NCBI GenBank assembly: GCA_964602125.1
Contig: CAZRPR010000003.1
Location: 1 to 38,753, forward strand
Reading direction: 5' to 3'
Source: an uncultured Candidatus Saccharibacteria bacterium
GTDB taxonomy: Bacteria > Patescibacteriota > Minisyncoccia > CAIUEV01
Length of the DNA stretch: 38,753 nucleotides
Below the pieces are notes generated by a model. The model worked only from the letters and a program-made list of their open reading frames with translations, did no database searches and was not told the DNA's origin. Both the position numbers and the translations under genes were made by a program. The first letter of the stretch is position 1. Each line of letters opens with the position of its first letter. This document shows positions 625 through 17,423 of this stretch, piece after piece.

Positions 625-658
625 GACTCTCTCCCAAAAGGAGGGAGTCGTTTTTTTT
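625..658 (+). terminator. Intrinsic terminator: 10-bp stem (gactctctcc / ggagggagtc, one G-U pair), loop caaaa, then g + T8
   Basis: Hairpin and T8 run read directly. The T-run overlaps the stop codon of the convergent MazF-like ORF. Confidence 0.7.
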
Positions 659-1049
659 AGAGAAAATTTTTGATTTTTTCTCTGATTTGAAAAAAATCTT
701 TATTCTCAACTATCCCAATTTTTCTTATAAGTCTTTTACTACTCAATATTCTAATTTGAGAGACAATGGCTACGCTTTTTCTTTTCCTAAAGTTAAATGG
801 GTAATAATATTTACCAAATTTCTGTTTACTGGTCAAAGGTATTGCTATAAATATATGTAAATTAAATTTTTTCAAGACAATCACAGGTCTTTCAAAATTC
901 TCACCTTTTCCATCCTGTTCATATCCAATGTTTAATCCCAAAGAGCACCACCAAATTTCTCTTTCATAGAAATACGAACTTCTATCATTGATATTTATCC
1001 GGGCTTTGATTCTGTGCCACTTGAGAAAATCTTTTTGGGAGTGATTCAT
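657..1049 (-). CDS. PemK/MazF-fold toxin-like protein (mRNA interferase family) with a roughly 28-aa N-terminal extension
   Basis: EIWWCSLGLNIGYEQDGK...ERPVIVL...IPLTS...VAIVSQIRILSSKRL matches the PemK/MazF pattern (IWW..LG..G.EQ.GKRPVLVL...PLTS...SQIRTID..RL) as I recall it. Confidence 0.65.
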   Translation of the reverse strand: MNHSQKDFLKWHRIKARININDRSSYFYEREIWWCSLGLNIGYEQDGKGENFERPVIVLKKFNLHIFIAIPLTSKQKFGKYYYPFNFRKRKSVAIVSQIRILSSKRLIRKIGIVENKDFFQIREKIKNFL

Positions 1050-1204: not shown

Positions 1205-1783
1205 CTAAACCCATCTATGTCCCACATTGAAATGGACATCGTCGATTCGCCAAAAAAGTGTTCCATCAGGCAAATAATAACCTCGACTCAGGCCGGTAGG
1301 ATAACGGAAACCATCCTTTTTTATTGTTTCAACTAACTTTCCTTCCGTTTTGGAGTAGATCATCATTTTACCGCTATCTAAGAATTCAATAAAAGCATCT
1401 TCGAATCTTTCTGCATATTGGCTGAAATTCCTCATTTGTAAGCCTTTCGTGGGTTTTAATTTTTGAAAAAAATTCAACTCTGTCGGAGGAATAAATTTTT
1501 TCAGATCTTTCAGACAAAAAGTGATAAAAACTTCATTGTCCTCATAAAAAGCGTCCTGCGGAATCTCGGGCGATTCTAATTGAATTGTCTTAAATGATTT
1601 GGATTGAGGGTTGAGCTTCAATCCATTCCTTCGACTAAGGCTTTCCTCCAATTCGTATTTTTTCGACAAAGTCTCTCTTCTCTTTTCCTCAAGCTCCAGT
1701 TTGTTTTTTCGAGAGCGATAAAGAAAAATTATAGCAAGAGAACCAACGCCAAATCCGATAATAAAGGGCAAGACATTACTCAT
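1205..1783 (-). CDS. Hypothetical membrane-anchored protein: N-terminal TM helix, charged helical linker, unknown C-terminal domain
   Basis: Hydrophobic N-terminus VLPFIIGFGVGSLAIIFLY followed by a K/E-rich segment. Co-directional and 51 nt downstream of the DUF262 gene. No motif recognised. Confidence 0.5.
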   Translation of the reverse strand: MSNVLPFIIGFGVGSLAIIFLYRSRKNKLELEEKRRETLSKKYELEESLSRRNGLKLNPQSKSFKTIQLESPEIPQDAFYEDNEVFITFCLKDLKKFIPPTELNFFQKLKPTKGLQMRNFSQYAERFEDAFIEFLDSGKMMIYSKTEGKLVETIKKDGFRYPTGLSRGYYLPDGTLFWRIDDVHFNVGHRWV

Positions 1784-1834
1784 GGGTTGTTTTTAAGGAA
1801 TTATAAGTTGTTTCAATGCGCTCTTATGTAATCG

Positions 1835-3664
1835 CTACTTTCTTGCATTTTCATTGACTGAAGAGAAAGAAAGTCTGAGATAGTATTTTTTAATTTTTTC
1901 AGCCATCATTTTTTTTCTTTCCTCTAGGAATTCTTTGTAGTTATCTATGTCCATTTCAAAGATCGTCCTTGGAATGCAATTTTCTTCAAGGTTTCTGTAT
2001 AATTCTTGAGTATTTGTGATACTGCCATATTTCAATTCACCCCCATTACATTGACCCAGCACCTCGTTCATATACTCCCTTGGTGATTTTTTCCCAATCC
2101 GAATGTTAATTTCAGATTGAGCATAAACAAAATTAGAGATTTGGTTATAGTCCCCTCTTGAAGAAAATTTCCTTTTCAAGTATTCTTTTGGAAAAATATG
2201 ATGAATATCACCTCTAAGACTAATTAAATTTCCAACCGTGATATCTCTTGAAAGAAAACCTCTGTTGTTATCTTTAATTTGAGCCGCAAAGAAAACGCTT
2301 AAAAAAGGACTGGAAATAATAGATCTGTTTAAATTTCCAACTAGCCCAACGCTCCAAAAAGTTTCCGAAAGTTCAGCTGCCTCGATTGATTCTAAATATT
2401 CTTTGACTCCCAGTTCGGATATTTTTTTGATATCGAAATCAATTTGAGACTCGGGAGAGCCGGAATATCTTCCTGTTAAGATTGACATTACAAACCAACG
2501 CTGAACATATCTAGCAACCAAAGCCTCGTCCATTTTTTGGTCTCGTAACTTGAGATAAAGAATGTAGGCAAAATTAAGAGTGTTTTGAGAGCTAATCAAA
2601 TCTTGCTCAATAAATCCGGAGGATTTGATAATCATCACAAAGCGCTTAAAGTGAGTTTCATTAACAAAATCAAGAACACCTCGGCTTAGTCTCTGGAAAG
2701 AATCATCCATAATTTCCTGTTCAAAAGTCCGAGTTTCAAAATTTCTTCCGGACAGCAAACTCACCAAATCGCTCATCTTGCCTCTTTCAAATTCCTTAGT
2801 GAAACTCACCCGCAAAACATCGGAATAGTTAGGATCATATAAATCATCTTTTTCTTTTCTCAACCATCCGATTTTATTGTAATATTCGGTGTTAACGAAA
2901 CATTTATCATTTTCACTTATATTCTTATAGAATTTAGGTTCTTTGGCTAAATGACAAAAATAATCAATACACTTTCTTAAATTAACCCCGAAGTCATCTT
3001 CAACTTCGTAGGATGCAATTTTTGACATTGCAAAATCAGCTTGGCTCAAAACAACTCCTTCTGAGTTTATTCGGATAAATATCTCTGTTACAGTTTCAAT
3101 ATCTAAATTAGCGTTAAGCTCAATGAACCCAACCGGCTTATTATTAATATCAAGTAATTTTCCAATATTTGTTCCAACTAGATTCTGATCGATTTCTGGA
3201 TTTTTCTCACAATATTCTTTTACCGATCCGAACAATCCGTCTCCCCGGTTCATTAGTTCAGCAATATCCGGAATCCAAGAATGGTCTTTCGTGATTGCTG
3301 GGGTCAGGGTTGCAAATTCTTCTTTAACTGGGTGAAAGGATATTTTAACATTTTGCTCCTTATACTCTTTGTCAATAATTGACTCACCCAAAATAGCCGC
3401 TCTTAAAGCCGTTATTCTCTGTTGACCGTCGATTAGAACCATCTTGCCATTTGAAAGAGTTCCGTCTTTCAAACGCACATCCGGATTTTTCCAAGCGATA
3501 ATATATCCGACAGGATATCCTTGATAGAGAGAGTCTATTAAGTCTCTAATTTTTGTCGTGTCCCAAACAAAAGGACGTTGAATTTCCGGTATGGCAATAC
3601 TTCCCGTTTGAACCAAGGAAAGAATGTTGCTGATTAAATACTGATTTACGCTGTATTTTTGCAT
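1835..3664 (-). CDS. DUF262 + DUF1524 (GmrSD-like / BrxU-like) putative modification-dependent Type IV restriction nuclease
   Basis: N-terminal IPEIQRPFVWD and LIDGQQRITAL (DGQQR, ParB-like NTPase motif of DUF262). C-terminal GDIHHIFPKEYL (His-Me finger of DUF1524). Confidence 0.8.
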   Translation of the reverse strand: MQKYSVNQYLISNILSLVQTGSIAIPEIQRPFVWDTTKIRDLIDSLYQGYPVGYIIAWKNPDVRLKDGTLSNGKMVLIDGQQRITALRAAILGESIIDKEYKEQNVKISFHPVKEEFATLTPAITKDHSWIPDIAELMNRGDGLFGSVKEYCEKNPEIDQNLVGTNIGKLLDINNKPVGFIELNANLDIETVTEIFIRINSEGVVLSQADFAMSKIASYEVEDDFGVNLRKCIDYFCHLAKEPKFYKNISENDKCFVNTEYYNKIGWLRKEKDDLYDPNYSDVLRVSFTKEFERGKMSDLVSLLSGRNFETRTFEQEIMDDSFQRLSRGVLDFVNETHFKRFVMIIKSSGFIEQDLISSQNTLNFAYILYLKLRDQKMDEALVARYVQRWFVMSILTGRYSGSPESQIDFDIKKISELGVKEYLESIEAAELSETFWSVGLVGNLNRSIISSPFLSVFFAAQIKDNNRGFLSRDITVGNLISLRGDIHHIFPKEYLKRKFSSRGDYNQISNFVYAQSEINIRIGKKSPREYMNEVLGQCNGGELKYGSITNTQELYRNLEENCIPRTIFEMDIDNYKEFLEERKKMMAEKIKKYYLRLSFSSVNENARK

Positions 3665-3726
3665 GTTGATAAATAAATAAATAATTATTCTAATTTTCCA
3701 ATCATGGTTTTTTGTAATTTAAAAAA

Positions 3727-6681
3727 TTACATCACATTACCTTTTTTCAAAGATTCAATCCAGGCCCAATATCCCTCTGGCCTAAGTAAATCAAAAATGT
3801 AGTGCTGCTTAAGATGGCTTCTAAATTTAGCACTAACTCTCATTTGGTCGATGTCCCTAAGCTTACTATTTAAAGCATTGAAATGTGCTTTAGCGGACTC
3901 CTCTTTTGGCACAATAGTTTCATCCTCGTCTTCATCTGACTTAATTTCAACTACTCGTACTAATTCATCAATACCTTCTTCTTGTAGTTCGCGTAAAAAA
4001 GCTAATGACTTAGAATCTGCCAAATTTCTAACTTTGGCAATATATTCAGAAAGATTTTGAACGATAAAAAAATCTGGATTAAAGCTTCTAGTTACCTCCG
4101 TTTTACCACCTTTCCAAAATTTATAGTCCAAAGAATAGAAACCTCTGTCTGAAGACTTTACCCATGACTTGAAAAAGGTCGAATTTTTCAAAAGTAAGAA
4201 TATAAACTCCTTTTCTGGTGAATGGGAGACTAACACTGCGCTTTGAGGAGACTTGAGAACTGACGGATTTACAATGTATGGCGGTCGAGGATCTTTATCG
4301 ACTAATGGTCTAGTATAATCAGAATGACTACCTAAAAAATCTTGCGGGTCAATTGTGAATAAAGTTCTTTGTTTTTTTTCTTCATCCGATTTGGTTCGCG
4401 CCTCAATTAAGTGTTTAAAAACAGCTTTGGTCTTAGTGTCTAATTCAGCTTCATAATTCTCACTAACAAATACTGTGGCATCTCGTTCCAAATCACCTAA
4501 TCGCACTGTTGAGCGTTCAATTGATTCTGTTGGGATTGGTATAATATCACCTAAAACATTTTCAAAGACTCGTTTCTTGGTGCCCTTTGGTAAAAATTGA
4601 TTGAAATATAAATCTATTTGTTGCTTATTTTCTTCAGATAGCTGATTGCCAACAATATTAGTTTGCTTCATTGCAGATAGAATTGTTTTACGAATCTCTA
4701 CTTCTTTTGGGCAACGTGCCTGTTCTCCTTGTCCGAAATCAAAATGAATGCCTTCATATTCCCTACCCTTGAAACGACGATGTAGATCAAGAATCACACC
4801 ATCAACAGATACAGTTTTTTTCTTAAATACGTACTGTTTGGTATCTTTCAAAAATTCTATTTTTACTGGCTCAGATAAATCTTGTTTACTTAAGATTAAT
4901 TTTCTTTTTGCTGGCAGTGACAATTCTCCTGCCTCCACATCTTTCATTACTGGTGTAGCGATATAACTAAGATTGAAAAGACAAAAATGGTTTTTAGCAC
5001 GATCTAAGTCCATTGTTTGGTTGGATGGCGTCAGGGGTTCCGAGGCAATGTGCATGTCAGATTGAATAACTGAATCCATCAACTCTTCAATATGGCTGGC
5101 AAATTTTTCATGGTTGGTTACAGTTAAACGAGGATAAAGTTCACCAATACTTAATCCGTGCACATTTATTTTTCGTGGTATACGCAAACCACGACCAAGA
5201 ACCTGGGAGATTAAAAGCTTTGAATTAAAGACTCGTTCCTCCATTGGCACGATCTGGAAAACATTATCCACATCCCACCCTTCTGACAATTTATTTACCG
5301 CAAAAATAAATTCTACTTTTCCACCGATTTTATCAGGGTTTGTTTCCTCAATATTATCCAATTGAGGTTTAAACTCTGATTCAGAAATACTAGAAACGAC
5401 ACAAATTACTCGCTCGCTTACCATTTGTTCTATTTCAGAAGCACTGCTACTTGCTCCGTTTTCTGAAACCTCCCATTTACTCAAAAATTTAATAAAATTT
5501 GCAGTCGCCTTTTTGGCATTCGCTTGATTAGGACAGATAAACATTGTAATTGGCTTCACAAGCATCTTGCCTTTTCTGACATAGGAATATTTTGCTTTGT
5601 TGTCTAGGTGATTTTTCAAAACCACTGCAAAACGTTTCTCGTCTGTCCATTGGATAGCGTCGCCCTCGGCATCAGAAGTTTTGAGTAAGGGATTAATTTC
5701 TTTGATATATTTTTCTTCAGTCGCTGTTTTAATAGAATAATCAAACAACACATCAGCAAAGTAGTCATCGCCGTTGTAAGGCGTACCAGTAAAACCAATA
5801 TGACGAGTGATTTTGTGCTTACCATTTGATTGAAAATATTCCGGCTTTTTGTAACGTCCTTTGCCTAATAAAAATTGCATCCACAGCCTCTCAGCATTAT
5901 CATCTGTTACTTTAGCATTTTCGGCTACAAATTCTTCTTCGACAGTGTTTGAGGTGGCATTAAATTTAAGATGTGAATAGGCATGATGCACTTCGTCGCT
6001 CAAAACCAAAATCTCATCATTACCACGAAACAGTGTGTCTTGAATACCGCCAAAAGTAAAAACAGCGTTAATGTTTTCGATCACAATACTATCGTCTTCA
6101 ATAGCGTCATTGTCAGTTAAAAGATTTATAGCTCGATTTTGATATTCCCTAGGAAGCAAAGCGTTTAATTTTGGATCGCGCATCAAATCTTTAAATTTAT
6201 CAGTCAAACCCTGTTCAATAATCGTTGAAGATGGGCCGAGCACCAAAACTCGTTTGGTTAAACCAAGTAATACCGACAAATGAGCCACAGCAAATATAAC
6301 AAAGGACTTGCCTGTGCCAGTGGCCATATGTACCACGCCAGACAACCGGTCGCGCAGTGGCAAATGCCCCATCATGATTTCTTCGGAACCAAAACGATCG
6401 CGTATTTGTGGCTTCAGGCTCCAATTTTCCATAGCTAAATCTTCAATCGTTTTATAGCTCCCACCCCACAGATAAATCATTACCTCACGAATAGCCTCAA
6501 ATTGATATTCGCGACCAGCAGTCAGAGCACGCACATAGTCCTCAATCTCAGAAAAGCGAAATTTGTCGTAGTTACATCTTCGGTCATTGATTTTGAGTGT
6601 ATGTTCAGAAAGATTCATTCGTTCAATTTCTTTCATTCTTTTCCCTCTTCTTCGTCTAATGATTGGTTTTTTATCTGACAT
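3727..6681 (-). CDS. res: Type III restriction enzyme Res subunit (SF2 helicase-like ATPase + C-terminal PD-(D/E)XK nuclease)
   Basis: Motif I MATGTGKSFV, motif II LSDEVHH, motif III GFTGTP, motif VI QVLGRGLR. C-terminal NPDFF...VVEIK fits PD...ExK. Starts 1 nt after the mod stop. Confidence 0.85.
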   Translation of the reverse strand: MSDKKPIIRRRRGKRMKEIERMNLSEHTLKINDRRCNYDKFRFSEIEDYVRALTAGREYQFEAIREVMIYLWGGSYKTIEDLAMENWSLKPQIRDRFGSEEIMMGHLPLRDRLSGVVHMATGTGKSFVIFAVAHLSVLLGLTKRVLVLGPSSTIIEQGLTDKFKDLMRDPKLNALLPREYQNRAINLLTDNDAIEDDSIVIENINAVFTFGGIQDTLFRGNDEILVLSDEVHHAYSHLKFNATSNTVEEEFVAENAKVTDDNAERLWMQFLLGKGRYKKPEYFQSNGKHKITRHIGFTGTPYNGDDYFADVLFDYSIKTATEEKYIKEINPLLKTSDAEGDAIQWTDEKRFAVVLKNHLDNKAKYSYVRKGKMLVKPITMFICPNQANAKKATANFIKFLSKWEVSENGASSSASEIEQMVSERVICVVSSISESEFKPQLDNIEETNPDKIGGKVEFIFAVNKLSEGWDVDNVFQIVPMEERVFNSKLLISQVLGRGLRIPRKINVHGLSIGELYPRLTVTNHEKFASHIEELMDSVIQSDMHIASEPLTPSNQTMDLDRAKNHFCLFNLSYIATPVMKDVEAGELSLPAKRKLILSKQDLSEPVKIEFLKDTKQYVFKKKTVSVDGVILDLHRRFKGREYEGIHFDFGQGEQARCPKEVEIRKTILSAMKQTNIVGNQLSEENKQQIDLYFNQFLPKGTKKRVFENVLGDIIPIPTESIERSTVRLGDLERDATVFVSENYEAELDTKTKAVFKHLIEARTKSDEEKKQRTLFTIDPQDFLGSHSDYTRPLVDKDPRPPYIVNPSVLKSPQSAVLVSHSPEKEFIFLLLKNSTFFKSWVKSSDRGFYSLDYKFWKGGKTEVTRSFNPDFFIVQNLSEYIAKVRNLADSKSLAFLRELQEEGIDELVRVVEIKSDEDEDETIVPKEESAKAHFNALNSKLRDIDQMRVSAKFRSHLKQHYIFDLLRPEGYWAWIESLKKGNVM

Positions 6682-6682
6682 A

Positions 6683-8812
6683 TTATTTGGTTACTATAAA
6701 TGGTTTACTTTCATTTCCATGCTTGTCAATCGCAATGACCGCGATTTTTTTCTTGGCCGATTCGTTCAGTGTAAAAAATCCCTCAGCATTTATATCTTTA
6801 GCAAAAACGGTCTTATCCATGTCGAAGGGTTTACCCACTTCATGATTAACATCGACCAAAAGCATAGCCAGACCCTCCAGACCCGGAAAGCGATTGCCTT
6901 CTTTGTTTAAAATTTTGGTTTCAAATTTGGTGATTTTTAGTCCTGGCTCATCACGTAAGATTTCAATCTCCACGTCCTCGTTAAAATAAAAAGCAGTAGA
7001 GGTAATAAGTTCGTTGACTGCTCCTTGTGAAGCTGGTTGTTCATGAAGCTCCAAGTGACGCGAAACATCTTCGAGTACCTTGTATGGGAAAGTTAGGAAT
7101 TTGAAAATCACTTCTTGACCCCCAGGATTTTTGAGCCTGGTGTCACCAATGTTAGTGCAATGTTCTGGAACGATAATATGATATTCTCTATGCAAACGCC
7201 CAGCACCTTGAGTGATAATGCTTTGCAAATAATCTTCATCAATTTTTACATTCTTAAAATGATGTTCGTCCCAAACCGGAAACACCTCCACTGGCGCACC
7301 ATCTTTTTCGGCATATATATTCGTAAGTTTTGTTTTACTGGCTTTTCCTTCATCGCGAACCAACTGAAACAAGCCTAAGACGAAAGCAATATAAGCATTT
7401 TTATGCTCTGGTGTGCCAAGTGCCATCACATGAGAGAAATCATAAGCACCAGCAGAAATAACGGAAAATGGTTTTGGATCTTTACTATATGAATCACCTT
7501 TTTTTACAATAATTTTATCGGCATCATCTTTTTCATCCACTAAGGCTTTACTTTCGCCTATACGAAGCATACGACGTTGTTGCGTATATATCGCATGCTT
7601 TCCAAAATCACAAGAAATCCATCGTCTTCCAAGTTTTTCAGCAACAGCAGGCGCAGATCCAGATCCAGCAAAACAATCTAAAACTATATCACCTGGATTA
7701 GACGAAGCCAACACAACCCTATCTAGAAACGCCTCTGGTTTTTGAGTTGGATAAAAACAATTTTCAAGTGCGCCGCCCTGCACTGGCGAAATATCAACCC
7801 ATATATCCTGCAATGGCACCCCCCTACCCTCATCTAAATATTTTTTTCTTTGCGGGACAGTGCCTGGATTCGTTTGTATTATTTCCCCAGCATCAAGTAA
7901 TTCTTGCATTCTCTTTCTGGAATACATCCAGTATCTAGTAACGCCCATAACCTCATATCGTGGATTTCCATTTGCCGCACCTCCTGGTCCAGCCATTGTT
8001 ACGAGCCTATAAACTCTGCCATCATTATCTGTATATTTATAAAAATCTTTTATATATTTTTCAGAATACGGTGTATAAATGCTATTCAAAGTAAAATTTT
8101 CACTTTTTCTATACAAAAGTATCACGTCATGCAATCGTCCAAGGTGTTTAGCACCTTGCCCCGAATCACCGTGTGAAAAAGTGCGCTTCCAAATAATTTC
8201 ATTTACAAAATTTTCCTTACCAAAAATTTCATCAAGCGTTATTTTAATACCATGGACCATTTTTTGATCTAAATGAACATATATACTACCATCTTTATGC
8301 AATATTTCAGACAAAAGCAACAACCGTTCGCGTAATGTTTCTATAAATTCGGAAGTAGCAATTTTATCATTATAACTTCTCTCCCCATCCTTCCCACCAA
8401 AATCACTCTTGGTAGCAAACGGCGGATCAATATAAATTAATTTTACTTTCCCCTTCACCTTGCCTTTGATTAGTGGATCTTCATCACGATAACAAGTTTT
8501 CAAAAACTGCAAATTATCACCTTGCACAATCATATTCTGCCACTCACCTTCCTTGGTCTCGCCAAAACTTCTCACCACTTGCAGTGGCGCTGCTCCAATG
8601 CCTGCTCCCGCCTCAGCCAAAATTGCTGCCTTGCTCCTCTTACCCGCATATTCAAGCGTTGGAATTTTGGCACGATCTAGTGCCTTCACATCAAACTTTT
8701 CAGCTGTGCCAGGGAAAAGTTTGGTCAGAAAATCAGGCGATGGCTCAACCCCAGCGTTTATAGCTTCTAGTAATTTGATTTTGTCTTCGTCGGTGAGATT
8801 TATTTTTGGCAT
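6683..8812 (-). CDS. mod: Type III R-M Mod subunit, beta-class N6-adenine/N4-cytosine DNA methyltransferase
   Basis: Motif IV LIYIDPPF precedes motif I VLDCFAGSGSA (beta-class order). Size and position upstream of res are typical of a mod-res operon. Confidence 0.85.
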   Translation of the reverse strand: MPKINLTDEDKIKLLEAINAGVEPSPDFLTKLFPGTAEKFDVKALDRAKIPTLEYAGKRSKAAILAEAGAGIGAAPLQVVRSFGETKEGEWQNMIVQGDNLQFLKTCYRDEDPLIKGKVKGKVKLIYIDPPFATKSDFGGKDGERSYNDKIATSEFIETLRERLLLLSEILHKDGSIYVHLDQKMVHGIKITLDEIFGKENFVNEIIWKRTFSHGDSGQGAKHLGRLHDVILLYRKSENFTLNSIYTPYSEKYIKDFYKYTDNDGRVYRLVTMAGPGGAANGNPRYEVMGVTRYWMYSRKRMQELLDAGEIIQTNPGTVPQRKKYLDEGRGVPLQDIWVDISPVQGGALENCFYPTQKPEAFLDRVVLASSNPGDIVLDCFAGSGSAPAVAEKLGRRWISCDFGKHAIYTQQRRMLRIGESKALVDEKDDADKIIVKKGDSYSKDPKPFSVISAGAYDFSHVMALGTPEHKNAYIAFVLGLFQLVRDEGKASKTKLTNIYAEKDGAPVEVFPVWDEHHFKNVKIDEDYLQSIITQGAGRLHREYHIIVPEHCTNIGDTRLKNPGGQEVIFKFLTFPYKVLEDVSRHLELHEQPASQGAVNELITSTAFYFNEDVEIEILRDEPGLKITKFETKILNKEGNRFPGLEGLAMLLVDVNHEVGKPFDMDKTVFAKDINAEGFFTLNESAKKKIAVIAIDKHGNESKPFIVTK

Positions 8813-8823
8813 AGGATTTTTGA

Positions 8824-11800
8824 TTATTGTTCGAGATTAAATTTATTTGCAAGTAAACGATCCAGCACCGTCACTTGCGTATCCCCTGGTTGTTCTGGGC
8901 GCAAAGTGAATTTATTGATGCGCAAAAAACGATAACCATAGCTTTCAAGTTCTAGGGTGCGACCATTGTCGTAATCCGTGAATTCTCGTGACAACGCATG
9001 GCGTGAAACTTCAGATGGATCTTTGAAATGAAATTCAATGCCATCATATTCCAAAATCAAAGTTTGCTCCTTACCACCTTTGGACAAAACCAACAAAAAG
9101 TCCACACGATACTTGGGCATCTGAGCTGCAAACTCAGTGCGCAAATAATTGCCAATTGGAAACTGTGGTACTAGACGGATGTTGGCTTTATTATTTTTGA
9201 AAAATTCAGTGTTAAGCACCAATTGATATAGTTCCTTTTCCTTGGGTGAATCAAAGATTGATTCATCTGCAATAAAGAAATCATTTTTCTCCGCTTCCTC
9301 TAAAGTGTTACGATAATGTTTCAGGGCATTGCCTAGTTGTGTATTGCTAAAATTTTCAATGTCTTGGCTAAGCACAAACACCATCGTGTCTTTGGCACGA
9401 GAAAAACCAACATTGAGCCGTTGCATTTTAAGCGAACGGATATTGTCAGCCGTACCACCGATGACCGGATAAATTGATCCGAGATTAGCATTACTTATAG
9501 CCTTATTTTCCACAAAAGAATAATAAACAATATCTCTTTCCTCACCCTGCACGTCTCCTACGAACCATACTTCCAGCTTGTGGTCGCGTTTCAGTTGCGG
9601 TAAGTTTGTCCGTTCGTTCAACGTCTCCTCCAATCTTATCTGTTGTTCTCTGAATGAAGTAATGACTCCAATCGTACCCTTGAAACCACCTGCTATAATA
9701 TTTTGGATATCTGTAATAATAGCATCAATTTCATCTAAATTTAAGTTAGCGCTGGCGTTACCTAAAGTTTTCACTGTTAGAAATCGCAATGTTTCTCCAA
9801 TCGGCTTGGTACGAATACGATTCATAATAAGTTCTTGCTGAGCAACTTTGTAGAATTTTTCATTAGAGTAGCTGATAATCTCCGGGAAACTACGAAAATG
9901 CTCCTTGAGTGATGTGGTGTAGTTGGCAATTGCTTTAGCAAAAGACAATGTCGAGGTTCTAATATTGAAAGTTTTGAGCCAAAGTACTGCTCCCGGATTA
10001 TCCTGCGGACGAATCAAGGCTTCGCTAACTAAATCATCAGTGTTAATATCACGAGCTACTTCGTCTACTAGCTCTTTTTTAGCCGAATCAGAGACTGATA
10101 CCTTGTAATCATCAGCATAAGCGTTTACAATTTCCGTAAAATAACTAGCCGAATATTTGGTAGAAACATTAATTGCACTAACTGCGCCATATTGATATTC
10201 GTCCCCAAAAATCACTACTTGTTTAGCGCGCAGAATTAATGAAATAGAATCAGCAATGGAAACTTGTGAAGCTTCGTCAATAATTAAAACATCAATCAAG
10301 TCTTCTTGCATGGGAAAATGTTTTGACAGGGTCGATGGCTCAGCAATAATAACCGAAATACCCTCAAGCAAAGTCTTGGTTTGGTCAGCTGTGAAACGCT
10401 TACCACCCTCAAAAGAAATTTTGAGTTGTTGCATAACACCTGAGTATTGATTGAGTTTTTTGAGACGAAGGTCGTTTTTGTGCTCAAGCTCTTTCTGTTT
10501 TAGACGTGAATACTCCCTAGTATCAGTTGTGAAGTCGTCGATCAAGGTGCTCGATTGAGATAGTCTGGCGTGTAGAAGAATCCATTTAAAAACCAATTTT
10601 TCTGTTTCACTACCATACTTTAGTCTACCAATAGTTGATATTTGATCCTGAATAACTCCAATGACCTCTAGAATAGTTCCGTAATGATCGAACAATTTAT
10701 TGATTGATTCAAGGGTCTCTATATTAAATTTATCAAGGGCTGTCTGATATTTTTGCACCTCGGTGAACATTTCCGAAATAGATAAATTAGCATTGCCTAC
10801 TAATTTTTGATATTCTTCAACCCAAACTTTGTATTTACGCAAATTAATTACTGCTTCAGCACGCTCTAAACCAGCCGACAAATCATTAACTGTTGCAAAA
10901 TTAAAATCTATTCCAGCAATTTTACTTATCTCGGTTAGTGGCTCAGTGTATTGTAAAGAAAGAGTTTTTCTAATAATCTCTTCTAGCTGCTCTTTGCTGC
11001 TTGCCTTTCCTGTTATTTTTGCTATGAAACCAGCGGACGCGTCTCTAACGGAAAGTTCTTTGACAACAGCGTCCTTCTTAAACAGGTTTGCCATTTCATG
11101 AATTAGATTAGAAAGATCTTCTGGAACGCTAGCGAATGAAGTTTCTACTGAGAGGATTTCTGCTGGTGTTGTATTTACATGCTCACAGGCTTCAATAAAT
11201 TTATGTAGTTCATGCTTGCGAGTCACAATAAATTCATATTCCGCTAGAGAAGTGGAAATAAAAATATTTTCAGTAGCAAGATCGACAAATTTTTCCAAAA
11301 TTTCCATATTTATTTCAGTTTCTAGCCTCAAAGTTGTGTCCAGCAAGCTCCCTATTTTGTCCGCCTTTTTAAGTTTTTCATTAATTTGTGAAAATTCCAC
11401 TTGATCGATCAATCTTTGTGATTCATTTTTCGCCGAGCTTAAACGAGATTGCAAAATACTTTCTAGATGTTTAGCAATTTTATTGCTGTCTTCGGTAATG
11501 GCTTTGTCGTTGTATTCCAGTGTTCTTTCAGTTGCACCGTTAACAACTGCTGAGGTTAAAGTGTTGCTAAAATTATTAGCAGACCCAGTTTCAATGTCCA
11601 TGCGCACTATTGACGGCTTAGCTTGAGGATGAAGTGCTTTAAACTTGTCTGTCATCATGCGATCAATTACATCAAGCGCCTCTTTTTTGTGAGATGTAAC
11701 TACCACGGTCTTGCCATCTTCATTAGCTTTGTACGCTAGTGCCGCAATTGTATGGGACTTACCAGTCCCGGGAGGACCATCAACTACAATTATTTTATTC

Positions 11801-13083
11801 TTGGTATTCTCTAGGGCAAGCAGGATTCTTTTCTGTGAATTATTAAGGGGGATCGGACCATCTGACATATAGCGTTTTGCGCTATTCGATGGATAACTAT
11901 CGTTAAATTTACGAATTACATCGTCTGTATAATTCGGTACTGTTCCAGAAATATATCCATCTATAAATGATCCGAATTGACTATGACCACCTGCGTCAAT
12001 ATTGGTCATTATCTCTGAATAATCCAATAATTTTTTGTCTTCATTTGCTACAATTTGAAAACCAATACGACCACTGATGGCTGGAAAATTTTCTTCATCA
12101 TGAATTATCTCTTTGAATTGTGGTTCTAAAATAAAATTTTGATTGATTCCATATTGAGCTTGCAAAAAAACTTCTATCGCTCCAAGAGGTGCACTTGCCT
12201 GCTCAATTGAAGATGCACGTGGAGTAGTCAAAACTCGATCAAATTTGAAAAAATTGATAGCAGGCACATTCAACAATAGCAAATTTCTTGGAAAAGAAAT
12301 TGTAATCTCAGTATTGGACAAGCGCATGTCCACTTCAATAAAATATAGCGGAAAAGAATCATCGCCACGAGAAATTGTGTGAAAGAAAATATAAAAAGTC
12401 CCTAGCGTCGAAAAAGCTTGATAGTTATGTAAATTTAAAAATAAATCATACAGGACAATGTCTTTGATTTCTTTTTTAAAATATTCTGTAACTTTTTTTA
12501 CATACTCATCTGGCTCAACTTGATTTTTTGCTAACTTCTTTAAAGCATCTAAGTGTGTCTTAAGATAAGTATTTAAACCAAAACTTGATTGAGGAAAACT
12601 GGTTGCTCCACTTTCTTCTTTAAATTGCAATAATAATTTTTCTTGCAAATCCAAAATAGCTTCCTCTAGTGTTTTACGTATCTTTATGTTGTATAATCTG
12701 ATTGCTTCATCCCAAGCAATTTTCGAAACATCCAATTCCACATTATTTGCTGATCGAGTCTCGATGCCTAAACGTTCTAGTTCATCTTTTAATAATTTTT
12801 CCAAGCACTCCTTGTCAAGATTACTGCTTATTGCTTTTGTTATTGCTAAGATTATATCTTGATTAGCTAGTGATAATGTGTATTGACCAGGTTTAATTTT
12901 GATATCAACTGATTTGCCAACTCTAATTGATTCCAGTAATAATTCCTGAAATTCCGGGTATAATGGCAGATCTAAGGTCAGCTCGTTATTGGTCCAACGA
13001 TAACTAACCATTCGCTTAAAGTTAAAGCGAGTCTCAGTAAAAGTAGCAAAATAATTGAGAATAGTTTTCGAGAGATTGCTCAT
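8824..13083 (-). CDS. Large Upf1-like SF1 helicase (AAA_11/AAA_12 type) with DUF4011-like N-terminus and C-terminal DUF559/Vsr-like endonuclease domain (HheA-like)
   Basis: Walker A VVDGPPGTGKSHT (about aa 436), VLIIDEASQ (D936), VIFGDEYQ, VQGEERDIV, LNVGFSRAKD. C-terminal YRVDFLL...ILEYDGIEFH...GYRFLRI matches the DUF559 pattern. Confidence 0.8.
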   Translation of the reverse strand: MSNLSKTILNYFATFTETRFNFKRMVSYRWTNNELTLDLPLYPEFQELLLESIRVGKSVDIKIKPGQYTLSLANQDIILAITKAISSNLDKECLEKLLKDELERLGIETRSANNVELDVSKIAWDEAIRLYNIKIRKTLEEAILDLQEKLLLQFKEESGATSFPQSSFGLNTYLKTHLDALKKLAKNQVEPDEYVKKVTEYFKKEIKDIVLYDLFLNLHNYQAFSTLGTFYIFFHTISRGDDSFPLYFIEVDMRLSNTEITISFPRNLLLLNVPAINFFKFDRVLTTPRASSIEQASAPLGAIEVFLQAQYGINQNFILEPQFKEIIHDEENFPAISGRIGFQIVANEDKKLLDYSEIMTNIDAGGHSQFGSFIDGYISGTVPNYTDDVIRKFNDSYPSNSAKRYMSDGPIPLNNSQKRILLALENTKNKIIVVDGPPGTGKSHTIAALAYKANEDGKTVVVTSHKKEALDVIDRMMTDKFKALHPQAKPSIVRMDIETGSANNFSNTLTSAVVNGATERTLEYNDKAITEDSNKIAKHLESILQSRLSSAKNESQRLIDQVEFSQINEKLKKADKIGSLLDTTLRLETEINMEILEKFVDLATENIFISTSLAEYEFIVTRKHELHKFIEACEHVNTTPAEILSVETSFASVPEDLSNLIHEMANLFKKDAVVKELSVRDASAGFIAKITGKASSKEQLEEIIRKTLSLQYTEPLTEISKIAGIDFNFATVNDLSAGLERAEAVINLRKYKVWVEEYQKLVGNANLSISEMFTEVQKYQTALDKFNIETLESINKLFDHYGTILEVIGVIQDQISTIGRLKYGSETEKLVFKWILLHARLSQSSTLIDDFTTDTREYSRLKQKELEHKNDLRLKKLNQYSGVMQQLKISFEGGKRFTADQTKTLLEGISVIIAEPSTLSKHFPMQEDLIDVLIIDEASQVSIADSISLILRAKQVVIFGDEYQYGAVSAINVSTKYSASYFTEIVNAYADDYKVSVSDSAKKELVDEVARDINTDDLVSEALIRPQDNPGAVLWLKTFNIRTSTLSFAKAIANYTTSLKEHFRSFPEIISYSNEKFYKVAQQELIMNRIRTKPIGETLRFLTVKTLGNASANLNLDEIDAIITDIQNIIAGGFKGTIGVITSFREQQIRLEETLNERTNLPQLKRDHKLEVWFVGDVQGEERDIVYYSFVENKAISNANLGSIYPVIGGTADNIRSLKMQRLNVGFSRAKDTMVFVLSQDIENFSNTQLGNALKHYRNTLEEAEKNDFFIADESIFDSPKEKELYQLVLNTEFFKNNKANIRLVPQFPIGNYLRTEFAAQMPKYRVDFLLVLSKGGKEQTLILEYDGIEFHFKDPSEVSRHALSREFTDYDNGRTLELESYGYRFLRINKFTLRPEQPGDTQVTVLDRLLANKFNLEQ

Positions 13084-13171
13084 AATATTTTTGTTCTTTT
13101 TTATTAAATATTTTTCCTTAATATCCTACACCCAACATTCAATAACATCCAAAAAACACTGTATTGAAAAG

Positions 13172-13318
13172 CTATCTAGCTTTTTTCACAAACTGAATTT
13201 CATAAACCGGAATCGCTTCCGGATTTTCATGGATGTATTTTTGTAAGTAGTCTTCACTCTCAAAAGAAGATTTAATCAGTTTTTGCGTTCCGTCTTTACT
13301 GGAAATAATAATACTCAT
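13172..13318 (-). pseudogene. 48-codon ORF (MSIIISSKDGTQKLIKSSFESEDYLQKYIHENPEAIPVYEIQFVKKAR), possibly the N-terminal remnant of a NucS/DUF91/Shedu-style PD-(D/E)XK nuclease
   Basis: Translated by hand. The pattern F.SE..LQ.YI.ENPE.I resembles N-termini of that nuclease class from memory. It sits 43 nt downstream of repeat copy 1. Confidence 0.25.
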
Positions 13319-13360
13319 TTAGTCGAATTATTAAATTATTTTCATTCCGGTGCCTACATC

Positions 13361-13392
13361 CTCACCTTACCCCCCAAAATTAATTAAATCAA
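13361..13392 (-). repeat. Direct repeat copy 1 (32 nt): ctcaccttaccccccaaaattaattaaatcaa. The minus strand reads TTGATT-17-TAAGGT.
   Basis: Matches 16181-16211 except for one extra C. Overlaps the stop codon of the 195-aa ORF. Confidence 0.9.
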
Positions 13393-13976
13393 AACTTAAT
13401 TTCCCCTCCCATCAAGCCTTGGTGCTTGCTTTTAATTCTTTTTTGGAAGTTTTCCAACAAAACCAAATATTCATTCACTTGCTCGACGGTGTAAGCTTCG
13501 TATTCCTTGTGTTCCAGGCTGGTGATGTGAACGAAGTTGCGGACTTTTCGGAGGTTGTGGAGGGCGTTTTTCATGGAGCCGTCGAGGAGGCCGTGCCGGA
13601 AGCCAGAGTCGATTAAGTAAATAAAATTCTCGTTTTCTTCAAAGCTGACGTTGCTTTTTTTGCTAGATAGTTGGAAGAGGAGGTCGTAGAGAGCGCTTTC
13701 CATGACGCCGGCGATGGTGATGAGCATATTTTTGCAGTGGAGAGATTCGATGGTGAGATACATTTGGTAGTCGTTGTAGAGATGGGCCATGTATTCCAAG
13801 TATTGGAGGTGGTAGGCGATGTTCTCTCGGGCGGGGAGATATTCGATGAAGGACCACTCTGCTTTGTAGTGATTGGCGCTTTGGGGGTGGCGGTCTTTGG
13901 GCAGGAGGATTTTCTTGTCGGAGTTGTCCTGCTTTTTTTCCTCGTCAAAGCTGACTTTTTTCTTGAGTAATTCCAT
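13389..13976 (-). CDS. Hypothetical 195-aa protein; tentative HEPN-like motif LRKVRNFVH
   Basis: Its ATG directly abuts the upstream gene's stop (TAAATG). R-x6-H / RN..H near the C-terminal third is only loosely HEPN-like. Confidence 0.6.
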   Translation of the reverse strand: MELLKKKVSFDEEKKQDNSDKKILLPKDRHPQSANHYKAEWSFIEYLPARENIAYHLQYLEYMAHLYNDYQMYLTIESLHCKNMLITIAGVMESALYDLLFQLSSKKSNVSFEENENFIYLIDSGFRHGLLDGSMKNALHNLRKVRNFVHITSLEHKEYEAYTVEQVNEYLVLLENFQKRIKSKHQGLMGGEIKF

Positions 13977-15236
13977 TTATTTTTTCTTTATTGAAATAGA
14001 TTTTTCCTCGACGGGCGGGGAGATTTTGAGAATTTTTTTGGTCAGCTGTTTTTCCAGGAGGTCGTCGTCAAGGAGTTTTTTGATTTTGCCGAAAGAAAGC
14101 TCGGAAAGCTCTTTCCAGTGTTTGGTGTCTTGGAGTAGTTTTTCCAGTTTTTGATACGCCTCCGGTTCAATGGATTTTCGGGGAAAGGCAAAATCTTTAT
14201 TCTTTTTGATGCAAACGAGGTGACTGCCACCGTCGAGGGTTTCTAGTTTGTTGGCTTTGGCGTATTGAAAGATTACATCCTCGATACGCTCAAGCTCCTG
14301 CTCAACAATCCAGGCTTTTTCTCTGGCCTTTCGGTTGATTTCCGATCTCTTGAGGACAAACGCAATATATTTTTTAGCCAGTTGAACCCCGCTGTCTTTG
14401 AGATACTTATTGGCCGGCAGACTGACAACTTTGAAAAGATGTTTCTTTTTGGGACAATGCTCCCAAAAACCGCACCAATCACATTTAGTTTCTTTGGCGG
14501 GAAAATCGTTTTTGCGTTCGGCTAAATTAATTTCGGCAATCAACTGGAGGATTTCTTCCTTTAACTCTGCTAATTGCTTATCCGTTCGCTCCGAGAAGAC
14601 ATCCTCCCCAAAGGCGACGTAATGCCAAACCAAACTCACTTTTTTGGCCTCGTGAAATTTTTGCTTAACGGCCATGGAATAAAGAGCCAGTTGACGATCT
14701 TTGTCGGCGTATTCTTGATCCATAATGGCTCCTGTTTTGTAGTCATGAACGGAATAGTGGCCTTTTTTGTCGCGGGCTAAGCGATCAATAAAGCCGGTTA
14801 TTTTGTACTTATTCCAATTGAGAGAAATTTCTTTTTCCACTCCCAGTGTTTGGTCTTGATTAAAAGGATAGAATTTTCGATAGTAATTGGCAATGCATTT
14901 TTTACCAAGTTCGAAATAGTGTTCTTTGCTAAATTCTTTGTTGTTGATAGCGATGGTATCCTCCCAATCTTTTTTCCAGTTCTGCTCGTAAAATTCCAAG
15001 AGTTTTTCCAAAGTGGTTATTTTGGTTTTTATAATCCCTTTATACAGAAATTCCATGGTGTCATGGACCAAGCCCCCCATGAAAGCTTCAATGGTCGTGC
15101 TTTCTTCGGCTGGCTTTAATCGGTCAAGATATTTATATTTATACTGAAGCGGACACCTTTCATAAACTTGCAGCTTGGAATGAGAAAATTGTTTCATTAA
15201 GTTATATAGATCTATTAAATTATTCCACCCTTTCAT
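13977..15236 (-). CDS. PD-(D/E)XK nuclease, RecB/AddB/Cas4-like with a four-Cys cluster, plus a C-terminal extension of about 140 aa of unknown function
   Basis: YERCPLQYKYKY (first Cys), GFIDRL...SVHDYKTG (D...D-x-K), QLALY, CDWCGFWEHC (C-x2-C-x5-C). I prefer the ATG at 15236, preceded by GGAGGT, over the TTG at 15263 used in the ORF track. Confidence 0.8.
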   Translation of the reverse strand: MKGWNNLIDLYNLMKQFSHSKLQVYERCPLQYKYKYLDRLKPAEESTTIEAFMGGLVHDTMEFLYKGIIKTKITTLEKLLEFYEQNWKKDWEDTIAINNKEFSKEHYFELGKKCIANYYRKFYPFNQDQTLGVEKEISLNWNKYKITGFIDRLARDKKGHYSVHDYKTGAIMDQEYADKDRQLALYSMAVKQKFHEAKKVSLVWHYVAFGEDVFSERTDKQLAELKEEILQLIAEINLAERKNDFPAKETKCDWCGFWEHCPKKKHLFKVVSLPANKYLKDSGVQLAKKYIAFVLKRSEINRKAREKAWIVEQELERIEDVIFQYAKANKLETLDGGSHLVCIKKNKDFAFPRKSIEPEAYQKLEKLLQDTKHWKELSELSFGKIKKLLDDDLLEKQLTKKILKISPPVEEKSISIKKK

Positions 15237-15253
15237 CTTACCTCCAAACAACG

Positions 15254-15279
15254 TAAGGAACAATAATTATTGTTCCTTA
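15254..15279. repeat. Perfect 26-nt palindrome taaggaacaataattattgttcctta between the Bro-N gene stop and the nuclease gene start
   Basis: The sequence equals its own reverse complement. Located in the 57-nt intercistronic gap. Confidence 0.9.
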
Positions 15280-15293
15280 TCAAGGGGAAAAAG

Positions 15294-16145
15294 CTATTCT
15301 TTGCTTTTATTTTTTTTCAACATCAAAACTTGCCGAGCGTTGAGTGGACTCACTACTTGCTTACCGGTTTCAAGCTCCAACTCCATACGAGCTCCTCTAG
15401 CTATTTTCCCGCCACGCTTTGCAACCTCTTCGTGCTCCGGAAATGATTTGGGATTAGTAATTTCAGAGATTTCTTTAGTGGATAATTCGGCCAACATATT
15501 CAAAACCAACTCTTTATTGGTCATATTGTCACGCAAATTTTCTTTTTTTAAACCTTTAAATTTTTTATATTCTTTAGCGGTTTTATCCGCCCATGTTTTA
15601 TAAATAATATCTGTAAGGGTAGCGAATTCCAATCCTTCCCTGAGTCCATGCTTTCTCCATTCATCAGTGAGTTCTTTACGAATTTCGATACTTTTTAATC
15701 TTTGATTTATCCAATTATCTGAATATCCCAAATTTTTATAGTCCCACATTGCTTGCTTTATGGAAAGTTCCGGATCTTGTATTTGGTCAAGTCTTTTTTT
15801 AGCAATTTCCGACAGCCACACTTTGAAAGGTTCGGCTTTTTTAGAAGGAATTGACTGAATGAGGCGAAAAACCTGCTTTGTATCTACCACATCTGTCAAG
15901 CGCATCTTTCCGTCCGGAGCTTTTATTTTCAACTGGTTAGTGCTACTAACCAGTTCGCTTCCTTCGGTTTTGAGTTTATTTTTGAGCCACTTCCAATAAT
16001 TTCTAACTTTTTGATAGTCATTTTGATCGGTAAGTACGGTAATAATGTCCAGAACTGAGAACCACCATTTTTCCATTTCTTCATCCCAAACAGTCCTAAC
16101 TTTCTGTTTTTCGAATAGCTGAATCGAATTTTTCATCTTATTCAT
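15294..16145 (-). CDS. Bro-N domain protein of the DinD (DNA-damage-inducible protein D)-like family
   Basis: LFEKQKVRTVWDEEMEKWWFSVLDIITVLT, IQSIPSKKAEPFKVWL, IQDPELS, ELTDEW, KKFKGLKKENLRDNMT and GGKIARGARMELE all match the widespread Bro-N/DinD-like family as I recall it. Confidence 0.75.
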   Translation of the reverse strand: MNKMKNSIQLFEKQKVRTVWDEEMEKWWFSVLDIITVLTDQNDYQKVRNYWKWLKNKLKTEGSELVSSTNQLKIKAPDGKMRLTDVVDTKQVFRLIQSIPSKKAEPFKVWLSEIAKKRLDQIQDPELSIKQAMWDYKNLGYSDNWINQRLKSIEIRKELTDEWRKHGLREGLEFATLTDIIYKTWADKTAKEYKKFKGLKKENLRDNMTNKELVLNMLAELSTKEISEITNPKSFPEHEEVAKRGGKIARGARMELELETGKQVVSPLNARQVLMLKKNKSKE

Positions 16146-16597: not shown

Positions 16598-17161
16598 TCA
16601 AGACGAAAGGGGATCCGAAAGGTGTTGGTGCCTAAGGAGCCCCTTTTTTATTTGCCATACTTTTATTTTTTTCTTGATATCTTTACTGTCCAGAGAATCA
16701 AAAAATTCCGAACCTAGTTCTTTATAGAGAGAGGAGGCGAATTTTTTGTTAGGGAAAAGGATCTTGCCGAATTTATGTTCTTCAATGAGAAAATCAACGA
16801 GCATTTTATAGTCTCCGTCTCCTGAAACCAAGATAATCTTGCCGAAGTCTTCTCTTTGGTAGATTTTTTTCATTATCTGAAAGACAATATCCGAATCGAC
16901 ATTCCCCTTCTTCTTGCCGGTCATGGCGCTGTTATGCTCCCGAAACATTAAAATAAAGCCCGCTTCCTGAACGCTGGTATATATTTCCTGATGAATTTCA
17001 TCCATGCAGCCTAAAAAGTAGTAGGCGGTTTCGACATGATACCTGTCTTTCAAAAAAACTCGAAATTTTTTCAAATCAATTCTCCATGGCCTTTTCAGTT
17101 TAGTCGTTCCCATGTGGAGATTCTGACCGTCAACAAAGGCATAATTGTTCTGATTTTCCAT
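16598..17161 (-). CDS. NYN domain (LabA/DUF88-like, PIN-related) putative RNase
   Basis: N-terminal YAFVDGQNLHMG and central ILVSGDGDY are the conserved acidic motifs of NYN/LabA proteins. Confidence 0.8.
   Translation of the reverse strand: MENQNNYAFVDGQNLHMGTTKLKRPWRIDLKKFRVFLKDRYHVETAYYFLGCMDEIHQEIYTSVQEAGFILMFREHNSAMTGKKKGNVDSDIVFQIMKKIYQREDFGKIILVSGDGDYKMLVDFLIEEHKFGKILFPNKKFASSLYKELGSEFFDSLDSKDIKKKIKVWQIKKGLLRHQHLSDPLSS
16606..16649 (+). terminator. Extended hairpin (ggggatcc...ggagcccc with inner aggtg/gtgcct pairing) followed by T6, lying inside the last ~17 codons of the NYN ORF
   Basis: Stem with one mismatch plus T-run 16644-16649 on the plus strand. On the minus strand it is followed by tttcgtctt. 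Confidence 0.45.
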
Positions 17162-17350: not shown

Positions 17351-17423
17351 GGGCTCGTAGCTTAGTTGGTAGAGCGCCTCCATGGCATGGAGGAGGTCAG
17401 GGGTTCGAGTCCCCTCGAGTCCA
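17351..17423 (+). tRNA. tRNA-Ala (anticodon GGC), no encoded CCA
   Basis: Cloverleaf folded by hand: acceptor GGGCTCG/CGAGTCC with G3:U70, anticodon loop AUGGCAU, T-loop TTCGAGT, discriminator A. Confidence 0.92.

Follow-up and report, generated by a model that had tools for sequence, protein, structure and literature searches.

In a 38,753-nt stretch of DNA from an uncultured Candidatus Saccharibacteria bacterium (contig CAZRPR010000003.1 of assembly GCA_964602125.1; hereafter the window), the gene for a large superfamily 1 (SF1) helicase-nuclease lies just upstream of mod and res genes resembling those of Type III restriction-modification (R-M) systems. Comparison with related loci indicates that these three genes, which we call the trio, are a unit inherited together in fixed order and orientation, and we think it likely that they encode a three-component, Type III-like restriction module working by the mechanism proposed below. 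The trio heads a run of five open reading frames (ORFs) that a preliminary description of the sequence had taken for either a stack of separate defences or one integrated system:

8824-13083, minus strand: helicase-nuclease ORF, 1419 aa, core gene 1
6683-8812, minus strand: Mod ORF, 709 aa, core gene 2
3727-6681, minus strand: Res ORF, 984 aa, core gene 3
1835-3664, minus strand: GmrSD-like ORF, 609 aa, facultative add-on
1205-1783, minus strand: 192-aa ORF with a hydrophobic N-terminus, conserved chromosomal flank

The case for a single unit comes from 137 non-redundant related loci, in which helicase, Mod and Res always follow one another in this order on one strand. One set was seeded with the helicase, whose profile was run against one genome per GTDB species and gave 74 loci; there, wherever the DNA suffices, tblastn with the proteins of the window places Mod (45-72% identity) and Res (42-87%) after the helicase on its own strand, and this linkage persists down to 40% helicase identity. 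The hosts comprise Patescibacteria, Desulfobacterota/Syntrophia, Thermodesulfobacteriota, Omnitrophota, Gammaproteobacteria, Chloroflexota, Bdellovibrionales, Nitrospirota, Verrucomicrobiota, Elusimicrobia, Ignavibacteriota and Tissierellaceae. In relatives at 65-84% identity, Mod follows the helicase after gaps of 4-15 nt and Res comes 1 nt further on where the contig reaches that far; the fourth gene varies, being YhcG/DUF1016 in one relative, and NERD, DUF2779 and a longer GmrSD in another. A second set was seeded with the Res profile and consists of 80 metagenome loci: the helicase is found upstream in 39, a further 33 are uninformative, having less than 1 kb of upstream DNA, and the remaining eight carry 1-8 kb of co-oriented genes upstream of Mod with no helicase within range. 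Seven of these eight were inspected, and their genes include cassette types that other loci carry embedded in the trio; a helicase is therefore probable further upstream, outside the sequence retrieved.

Over the 137 loci pooled, the helicase and Mod are separated by 29 nt or less in 46 of 80 cases (modes -14, -8 and +4), and Mod and Res by 35 nt or less in 76 of 91 (mode 1-2 nt). Among 43 complete loci, the distance matrices of helicase and Res correlate at 0.97 (Mantel p = 0.001), those of helicase and Mod at 0.90 and those of Mod and Res at 0.90; the helicase, in other words, follows Res in divergence no less closely than does Mod, the accepted partner of Res. Because the association is near-obligate in both directions, with a fixed order, frequent overlap of start and stop codons and co-divergence, the 'integrated' half of the preliminary description holds for helicase, Mod and Res; its 'stacked' half suits the GmrSD-like (DUF262) gene, and neither suits the 192-aa gene. 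Its reading had also required that homologues of the helicase and of the 192-aa protein neighbour Type III mod/res or DUF262 genes, and the related loci bear this out for the former and not for the latter.

The coupling of the helicase to its partners cannot depend on adjacency, since cassettes can separate it from Mod. Indeed, 33 of 80 loci (41%) carry between 0.76 and 8.6 kb of DNA at this junction, with 66 of the 72 embedded genes on the strand of the trio. The embedded genes include Gabija GajA and GajB, AbiLi and AbiLii, HerA, AbiEi and AbiEii, a 5-methylcytosine (m5C) methylase with Vsr and a HATPase protein, YhcG/DUF1016 (PDC-S02), a DUF4143 ATPase (PDC-S01), Bro-N (PDC-S13) and the GmrSD-like HEC-05. 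Such embedding has been described for Hma, BREX, DISARM and Type I R-M systems, where it yielded the GmrSD-like candidates HEC-05 and HEC-06 (Payne et al., bioRxiv 10.1101/2024.01.29.577857). To judge from these relatives, the helicase-Mod junction is a permissive insertion site for defence cassettes; the embedding behaviour of the trio therefore supports a role in defence and explains the defence genes that surround it in the window.

Two kinds of insert deserve mention in their own right. The commonest embedded gene, present in 19 of the 33 embedded loci (for example at L021:14438-15787), encodes a Schlafen AlbA_2 and HATPase_c_4 protein of ~450 aa with weak PADLOC matches only, to pAgo-associated models and to PDC-S50; it is a good candidate for an uncharacterised defence gene by 'guilt by embedding'. 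At the Mod-Res junction, the sole recurrent insert is a HEPN gene (150 aa; Pfam HEPN 6.8e-19), found in eight loci (for example L049:22394-22846) and sometimes accompanied by a partner of ~110 aa.

The frequency of insertions between helicase and Mod, which implies that close coupling is dispensable, is one of two points in favour of pure stacking, that is, of an autonomous single-gene defence helicase in the manner of Hhe or Mokosh that stands beside an ordinary Type III R-M system and is kept there by island dynamics or co-transfer. The other is the resemblance of the helicase core to stand-alone defence helicases, PADLOC matching it to MkoA (4.5e-32, aa 403-1242), PDC-S37 (1.1e-26) and Hhe (3.6e-17). 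However, such chance company is hard to square with a near-obligate two-way association that has no clear counter-example among informative loci, with an order and strand that never change, with start and stop codons that overlap in many loci, or with a helicase-Res correlation at least as tight as that of Mod and Res. Moreover, the GmrSD, Bro-N and PDDEXK neighbours move or drop out, and the helicase never does. On these comparisons of sequence, plain stacking appears strongly disfavoured, and we regard it as improbable.

What, then, do the three proteins look like? Three of their regions matter for the argument:

11854-13083, minus strand: N-terminal region of the helicase (aa 1-410), strongly conserved within the family
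8824-9321, minus strand: putative DUF559/MTES_1575-like nuclease at the helicase C-terminus, from sub-threshold, family-wide Pfam matches
7763-8215, minus strand: hypervariable central region of Mod (~aa 200-350), taken as the target-recognition domain

The helicase has 1658 homologues, the best 120 of which are 1311-1496 aa long and nearly all aligned over the full query. Pfam matches it to AAA_11 (4e-16) and AAA_12 (6.7e-16), with no match to DUF4011. Its SF1 core carries a Walker A motif GPPGTGKS (aa 436-443) and a Walker B motif DEASQ (aa 936-940), between which lies a less well conserved insertion of ~490 aa, and profile searches of the PDB relate this core, and nothing beyond it, to Upf1, IGHMBP2, DNA2 and Sen1. 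The N-terminal region has no Pfam match, and its AlphaFold2 model (mean predicted local distance difference test, pLDDT, 61.8) gives no Foldseek match in the PDB at E<=0.001; a profile search with this region returned truncated members of the same family only, two divergent matches being fragmented genes on uninformative contigs. At the other end of the protein, the match to DUF559 (E 1.3e-3) reaches 19 bits, below the cut-off of 20.6, and among 12 homologues sub-threshold matches recur for MTES_1575 in all 12 and for DUF559 in 11. The motif D...E.DG..H is invariant in the family (D1328, E1345, D1347 and H1352; nt 9028-9102), and several homologues bear the JGI label 'very-short-patch-repair endonuclease'. 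The AlphaFold2 model of this domain (pLDDT 76.4) has no significant Foldseek match, nor has the domain a PDB-profile match, so the DUF559 assignment stays at the level of a sequence motif.

Mod is a beta-class amino-methyltransferase (Pfam N6_N4_Mtase, 3.9e-44) with motif IV DPPF at aa 129-132 (nt 8417-8428) and motif I D.F.GSG at aa 379-385 (nt 7658-7678). By established motif rules, DPPF is the N6-adenine form and SPP[YF] the N4-cytosine form. Its relatives in the PDB are Type III Mods (6k0w, EcoP15I 4zcf and Mbo45V 7dsu), and its best PADLOC match is to a generic methyltransferase model of 425 positions, covering aa 51-419. In the central region, identity to loci L001 and L004 falls to 8-28%, against 92-98% in the Mod segments on either side; such variability between near-identical flanks is the signature of specificity-domain swapping. 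The C-terminal 290 aa (aa 420-709) form a domain that is conserved within the family and matches no known family in a Pfam scan.

Res matches ResIII (Pfam 2.5e-15, aa 57-241) and has the domain order of Type III Res proteins: an N-terminal superfamily 2 (SF2) ATPase with Walker A ATGTGKS (aa 120-126), DExHH (aa 229-233), GFTGTP and QVLGRG.R, then a C-terminal PD-(D/E)XK nuclease motif with FNPDF (aa 867-871) and VEIK (aa 911-914; nt 3940-4074). The motifs of both parts are invariant in 17-29 homologues. PADLOC REase_III gives partial matches in 17 of 17 members of the family. The NCBIfam model for Type III Res (PRK15483) scores 28 bits against a cut-off of 564, which places the protein outside the curated family, and neither sequence nor profile searches of the PDB return a match, EcoP15I Res 4zcf included. 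Among the domain labels that the preliminary description had given to these proteins and to the GmrSD-like one, AAA_11/AAA_12, N6_N4_Mtase, ResIII and GmrSD_N are borne out by Pfam; DUF4011 is not matched, DUF559 and MTES_1575 stay below threshold, and DUF1524/GmrSD_C has no Pfam match, the C-terminus having a conserved motif nonetheless.

Measured against classical Type III systems (EcoP15I and EcoP1I, Mod2Res1), the trio is alike in having co-oriented mod and then res genes 1-2 nt apart, a beta-class Mod in which motif IV precedes the target-recognition region and motif I follows it, and a Res with an N-terminal SF2 ATPase and a C-terminal PD-(D/E)XK motif. It differs in that Type III R-M comprises two genes, to which the trio adds a conserved upstream SF1 helicase-nuclease of ~1400 aa; moreover, its Res is too divergent to be matched to that of EcoP15I by sequence or profile, and its Mod has the extra C-terminal domain. 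As all of its parts belong to known kinds, we would call it a Type III-like R-M system that has a helicase-nuclease as its obligate partner and serves as an embedding scaffold, and not something categorically new.

In the mechanism we propose, Mod would methylate the host's own sites, and Mod-Res would sense unmethylated sites on incoming DNA and nick or cut it ATP-dependently, in Type III style. The helicase-nuclease, as a dedicated third component, would load on the resulting ends or nicks, and would unwind and degrade the DNA in a role like that of DNA2 or RecBCD, turning a single repairable break into irreversible destruction. Contacts between the three proteins may be provided by their family-specific domains, namely aa 1-410 of the helicase, aa 420-709 of Mod and the central part of Res.

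Several points weigh against this reading of the trio. A dependence of restriction on the helicase is deduced from gene linkage, and the cassettes of up to 8.6 kb that split the helicase from Mod mean that neither translational nor transcriptional coupling is needed and that it could work independently. The putative assignment of its C-terminal domain as a nuclease comes from matches below the Pfam threshold, and two-site cleavage in the Type III style is an assumption, because Res matches classical Type III Res only partially. Most of the loci, moreover, are metagenome-assembled genomes (MAGs) or metagenome contigs, many of them truncated, and high mirror-tree correlations can come from a shared history of transfer in the absence of physical interaction.

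Could the helicase-nuclease instead be a guard, a back-up effector held inactive by functional Mod-Res and freed when an anti-restriction protein of a phage blocks that complex, so as to degrade DNA indiscriminately in abortive infection? Guard effectors embedded in R-M systems are known: PrrC is released from EcoprrI (reviewed in PMC12707154), and it offers a precedent here. Tight linkage and co-divergence would suit a physical partnership of this kind, and Res and the helicase each keep nuclease motifs of their own, so that their triggers may differ. Yet the sequence points to no sensing or inhibitory interface, toxin-like feature or anti-restriction-mimic site; the idea is a purely inferential one, and we consider it rather unlikely.

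A role outside defence would be a more radical departure from a restriction module, the trio serving in DNA repair, in epigenetic regulation or as a selfish addiction module of a mobile element. R-M systems can indeed behave as selfish elements, and the helicase core is related to enzymes of the DNA2, Upf1 and IGHMBP2 types. However, a hypervariable target-recognition region in Mod, a patchy distribution over some ten phyla and the repeated embedding of known defence cassettes all speak for defence. No integrase or transposase turns up in the gene clusters that recur near the trio, of which the larger ones were annotated, and the helicase is nearly absent from mobile DNA: it has no close relatives in PLSDB plasmids, and its only matches in IMG/VR viral contigs are two end fragments of 30 aa. 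We think a non-defence role very unlikely.

Which known defence system, then, does the trio most resemble? On the side of the helicase, Hhe is said to have been described by Gao and colleagues in 2020 as a single-gene defence with the order DUF4011 - SF1 helicase - Vsr/DUF559. Both are large SF1 helicases; Hhe ends in a Vsr/DUF559-type nuclease domain, and the trio helicase in a putative one with sub-threshold matches to DUF559. The trio helicase differs in having no DUF4011 match and in being near-obligately associated with Mod and Res, with no clear solitary case among informative loci. The label 'HheA-like' used in the preliminary description is not borne out by the family models: the Hhe model of NCBIfam (NF042953) gives 57.6 bits where 2000 are required, the PADLOC match to Hhe is confined to the helicase motifs, and DUF4011 is unmatched. 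Mokosh supplies, in MkoA, the best PADLOC similarity of the helicase core, and both are Upf1-like (COG1112), MkoC likewise matching over the core only; but Mokosh pairs MkoA with the phospholipase D (PLD) nuclease MkoB in type I and has a fused PLD in type II, whereas the trio helicase has a different N-terminus and mod and res as partners, and a Pfam scan of the five proteins and of four neighbouring ones finds no PLD domain. Identity with Hhe, with Mokosh or with the NCBIfam 'ProA' system, the last of which we could not trace in the literature, was rejected, as only the helicase core matches, and far below curated cut-offs.

Amongst multi-gene systems, Hma is made up of the helicase HmaA, the m5C methyltransferase HmaB and the DUF499 ATPase HmaC (Payne et al. 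2021, PMC8565338) and has been re-read as BREX-related (PMC12839542). It shares with the trio a three-gene layout of helicase, methylase and ATPase, a wide and patchy phyletic spread, and the co-oriented embedding of other defence systems, GmrSD-like genes included. The components, however, are not homologous: the methylase is of the m5C type in Hma and of the N6_N4 class in the trio, the DUF499 ATPase stands against a ResIII-type SF2 protein with a nuclease motif, and the trio helicase is an SF1 enzyme with a DUF559-like nuclease. Identity with Hma, which the HEC-05 match ('Hma-embedded candidate') had prompted us to consider, was rejected, there being no Hma model among the PADLOC matches listed and both methylase and ATPase being different. 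DISARM and BREX are alike in principle, in that a methyltransferase marks self, helicase or ATPase proteins act on unmarked DNA, and both host embedded cassettes; they differ in that PADLOC finds no DrmA, DrmB, DrmC, PglZ, BrxC or BrxL homologues among the five proteins, and in that the trio has a classical Res-type nuclease.

No curated NCBIfam model passes its cut-off for the helicase, Mod or Res, and PADLOC matches helicase and Res over part of their length only, and Mod by a generic model. Searches of open-access full texts turned up no account of an SF1 helicase-nuclease beside a Type III-like mod-res pair, which is not proof of novelty. The helicase occurs mostly in MAGs and is essentially absent from PLSDB and IMG/VR, and the trio may have been overlooked for this reason. 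A bolder formulation, which we hold to be possible and no better than tentative, is that the trio is a distinct, undescribed class of ATP-dependent R-M system, missed because it is nearly absent from RefSeq and from cultured organisms, with an SF1B helicase-nuclease as obligate subunit and a junction that acts as a docking site for cassettes. In such a class, a Mod-Res sensor would license the helicase-nuclease to destroy unmethylated DNA processively, and the junction would recruit and co-regulate cassettes; the class would be widespread in uncultured anaerobes and in the candidate phyla radiation (CPR).

If the helicase-nuclease truly works with Mod-Res, the trio would represent a new restriction architecture, in which a sensor-methylase pair is joined to a processive destroyer, and it would let genetics test cleanly if restriction can depend on a second motor-nuclease. 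It occurs in ten or more phyla, most of them uncultured (Patescibacteria, Desulfobacterota, Omnitrophota, Verrucomicrobiota and others), where RefSeq-based defence catalogues see little. It also joins Hma, BREX, DISARM and Type I R-M as a fifth embedding scaffold, and by 'guilt by embedding' the uncharacterised genes that separate its helicase from Mod are now candidates for new defence functions. In addition, the trio provides a family of site-specific methyltransferases with swappable specificity domains, and a helicase-nuclease with two domains of unknown fold.

The two genes downstream of Res require a separate reading. The run of five minus-strand ORFs and the gaps of 11, 1, 62 and 51 nt given by the preliminary description are reproduced exactly by the ORF table, and a consensus scan likewise places no minus-strand terminator-like site in these gaps; it finds four such sites on this strand, all of them within ORFs. 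Terminator-like sites as a whole are not above chance (15 against 10.7 +/- 3.1 in shuffled sequence), and promoter-like sites, which are at chance level too (40 against 42.1 +/- 6.9), weigh neither for nor against a shared transcript or internal promoters. Homologues over the full length are found elsewhere for all four large proteins, so none of the four is a chance ORF.

One strand, short gaps and the lack of predicted terminators in them would all be expected if the five genes were one integrated five-component system on one transcript, as would GmrSD-like genes directly after Res in seven other loci. But ~89% of the loci with downstream DNA have no GmrSD-like gene there, one such gene lies upstream of the helicase instead, and the 192-aa protein has no homologue in the related loci checked and recurs in the flank of a locus, L081, that bears a Type I system. 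A five-component system is already largely refuted by these comparative data, and we consider it highly improbable.

The GmrSD-like protein matches GmrSD_N (DUF262) at 2.5e-31, with 109.8 bits against a cut-off of 33.2, and has the DGQQR motif; GmrSD_C/DUF1524 gives no Pfam match, and the C-terminus, which is His-Me-finger-like, has a motif HH.FP...N.I.N...N conserved in nine homologues. PADLOC matches it to HEC-05 (3.1e-30) in four stretches, and it aligns to BrxU 7p9k (E 1.4e-8). Its cluster around the trio has nine members of 29-72% identity, eight of them downstream of Res on the same strand (seven at -4 to 417 nt from Res, one ~2 kb away) and the ninth upstream of the helicase; within 3 kb downstream of Res, the gene occurs in 8 of the 75 loci with downstream DNA (~11%). 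This gene is a recurrent, optional companion and probably an independent Type IV add-on. Its product is a putative modification-dependent nuclease that probably acts alone against phages with hypermodified DNA that escape methylation-sensitive restriction, much as BrxU, in its pairing with BREX, is a modification-dependent nuclease that complements a methylation-sensitive system.

The 192-aa protein, for its part, has no family match in Pfam, and tblastn with it finds no homologue in any of the related loci checked. An exhaustive search of 1.84 billion proteins gave 22 representative clusters only. The closest homologue (68% identity) lies in L081, after a Type I hsdR gene; one remote homologue sits on an uninformative contig of 1.2 kb. 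Nucleotide synteny between the window and L081 runs from position 1809 leftwards, at 75% over the 192-aa gene and 94-97% further out, and its break falls precisely in the interval that separates this gene from the stop codon of the GmrSD-like ORF. Because the synteny ends at its border, the 192-aa gene is a conserved flank of a hotspot with differing cargo. The earlier suggestion that it encodes an uncharacterised accessory or effector gives way to this synteny with a Type I-bearing locus and to its absence from related loci; the alignments place the border of the island at ~1810, with the 192-aa gene as the first gene of the conserved flank and no part of the system.

From that border the defence island extends to ~17 kb, with the trio as its backbone. 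The further features of the island and its surroundings are:

13084-13388, minus strand: intergenic region of 305 nt upstream of the helicase, the likely place of the module promoter
13389-13976, minus strand: p195, a 195-aa protein of no family, island passenger
13977-15263, minus strand: PDDEXK_1/Cas4-like nuclease (Pfam), island passenger
15294-16145, minus strand: Bro-N protein (PADLOC candidate PDC-S13, 4e-123), island passenger
16598-17161, minus strand: NYN-domain protein gene, between the defence genes and the housekeeping block
17351-17424, plus strand: tRNA-Ala(GGC), between the defence genes and the housekeeping block
22691-22766: tRNA-His, in the right-hand housekeeping region
657-1049, minus strand: PemK/MazF-like toxin gene (Pfam 5.6e-13), outside the island

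The intergenic region upstream of the helicase contains promoter-like minus-strand matches at 13356-13327 and 13334-13305, found by consensus only and not above the expectation from shuffled sequence. A further match (TTGCAA-18-AATAAT, minus strand, 8823-8852) falls within the helicase ORF, at its 3' end, and stops 11 nt short of the start codon of Mod. A promoter here for mod and res would suit the loci split by cassettes, but such matches are no commoner in the region than in shuffled sequence.

The p195, PDDEXK_1 and Bro-N genes are passengers of the island and lie outside the core. Homologues of all three occur near other trios: Bro-N between helicase and Mod in three loci (L017, L102 and L109), PDDEXK after GmrSD in L029, and p195 4 nt upstream of the helicase in L045. 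This relocation suggests a shared pool of passenger genes. The NYN gene and the tRNA-Ala are the probable right-hand border, an Rfam scan of 1-18 kb finding nothing besides this tRNA, and to the right of ~18 kb follow housekeeping genes for DNA polymerase III delta', a phosphoglucose isomerase (PGI)-type isomerase and arginyl-tRNA synthetase. The closest helicase homologues are from Patescibacteria (Moraniibacteriota 84%, Peribacteria 79%), and together with the housekeeping flank they therefore point to a chromosomal island in a CPR-like genome. One trio from a Candidatus Peribacteria MAG (L008:272-9453; helicase and Res 79-83%, Mod 72% identical) carries 24 TGA codons in frame but neither TAA nor TAG; it is stop-free under code 25, and so is resident in a stop-reassigned lineage.

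On the left, the mazF-like gene has no recognisable antitoxin ORF on either side, is followed by a strong hairpin with a T-run on the opposite strand (625-649), and is missing from the otherwise syntenic L081. Further out, at 98-209, lies an element of ~115 bp with a hairpin of 14-bp stem (182-212). We considered it as an att-like repeat bounding the island and rejected this, as it is present in a single copy and the window holds no second one. The same element recurs in L081 (3888-4002, 85% identity), exactly between the Type I R-M cargo and the homologue of the 192-aa gene, and may mark the border of the hotspot.

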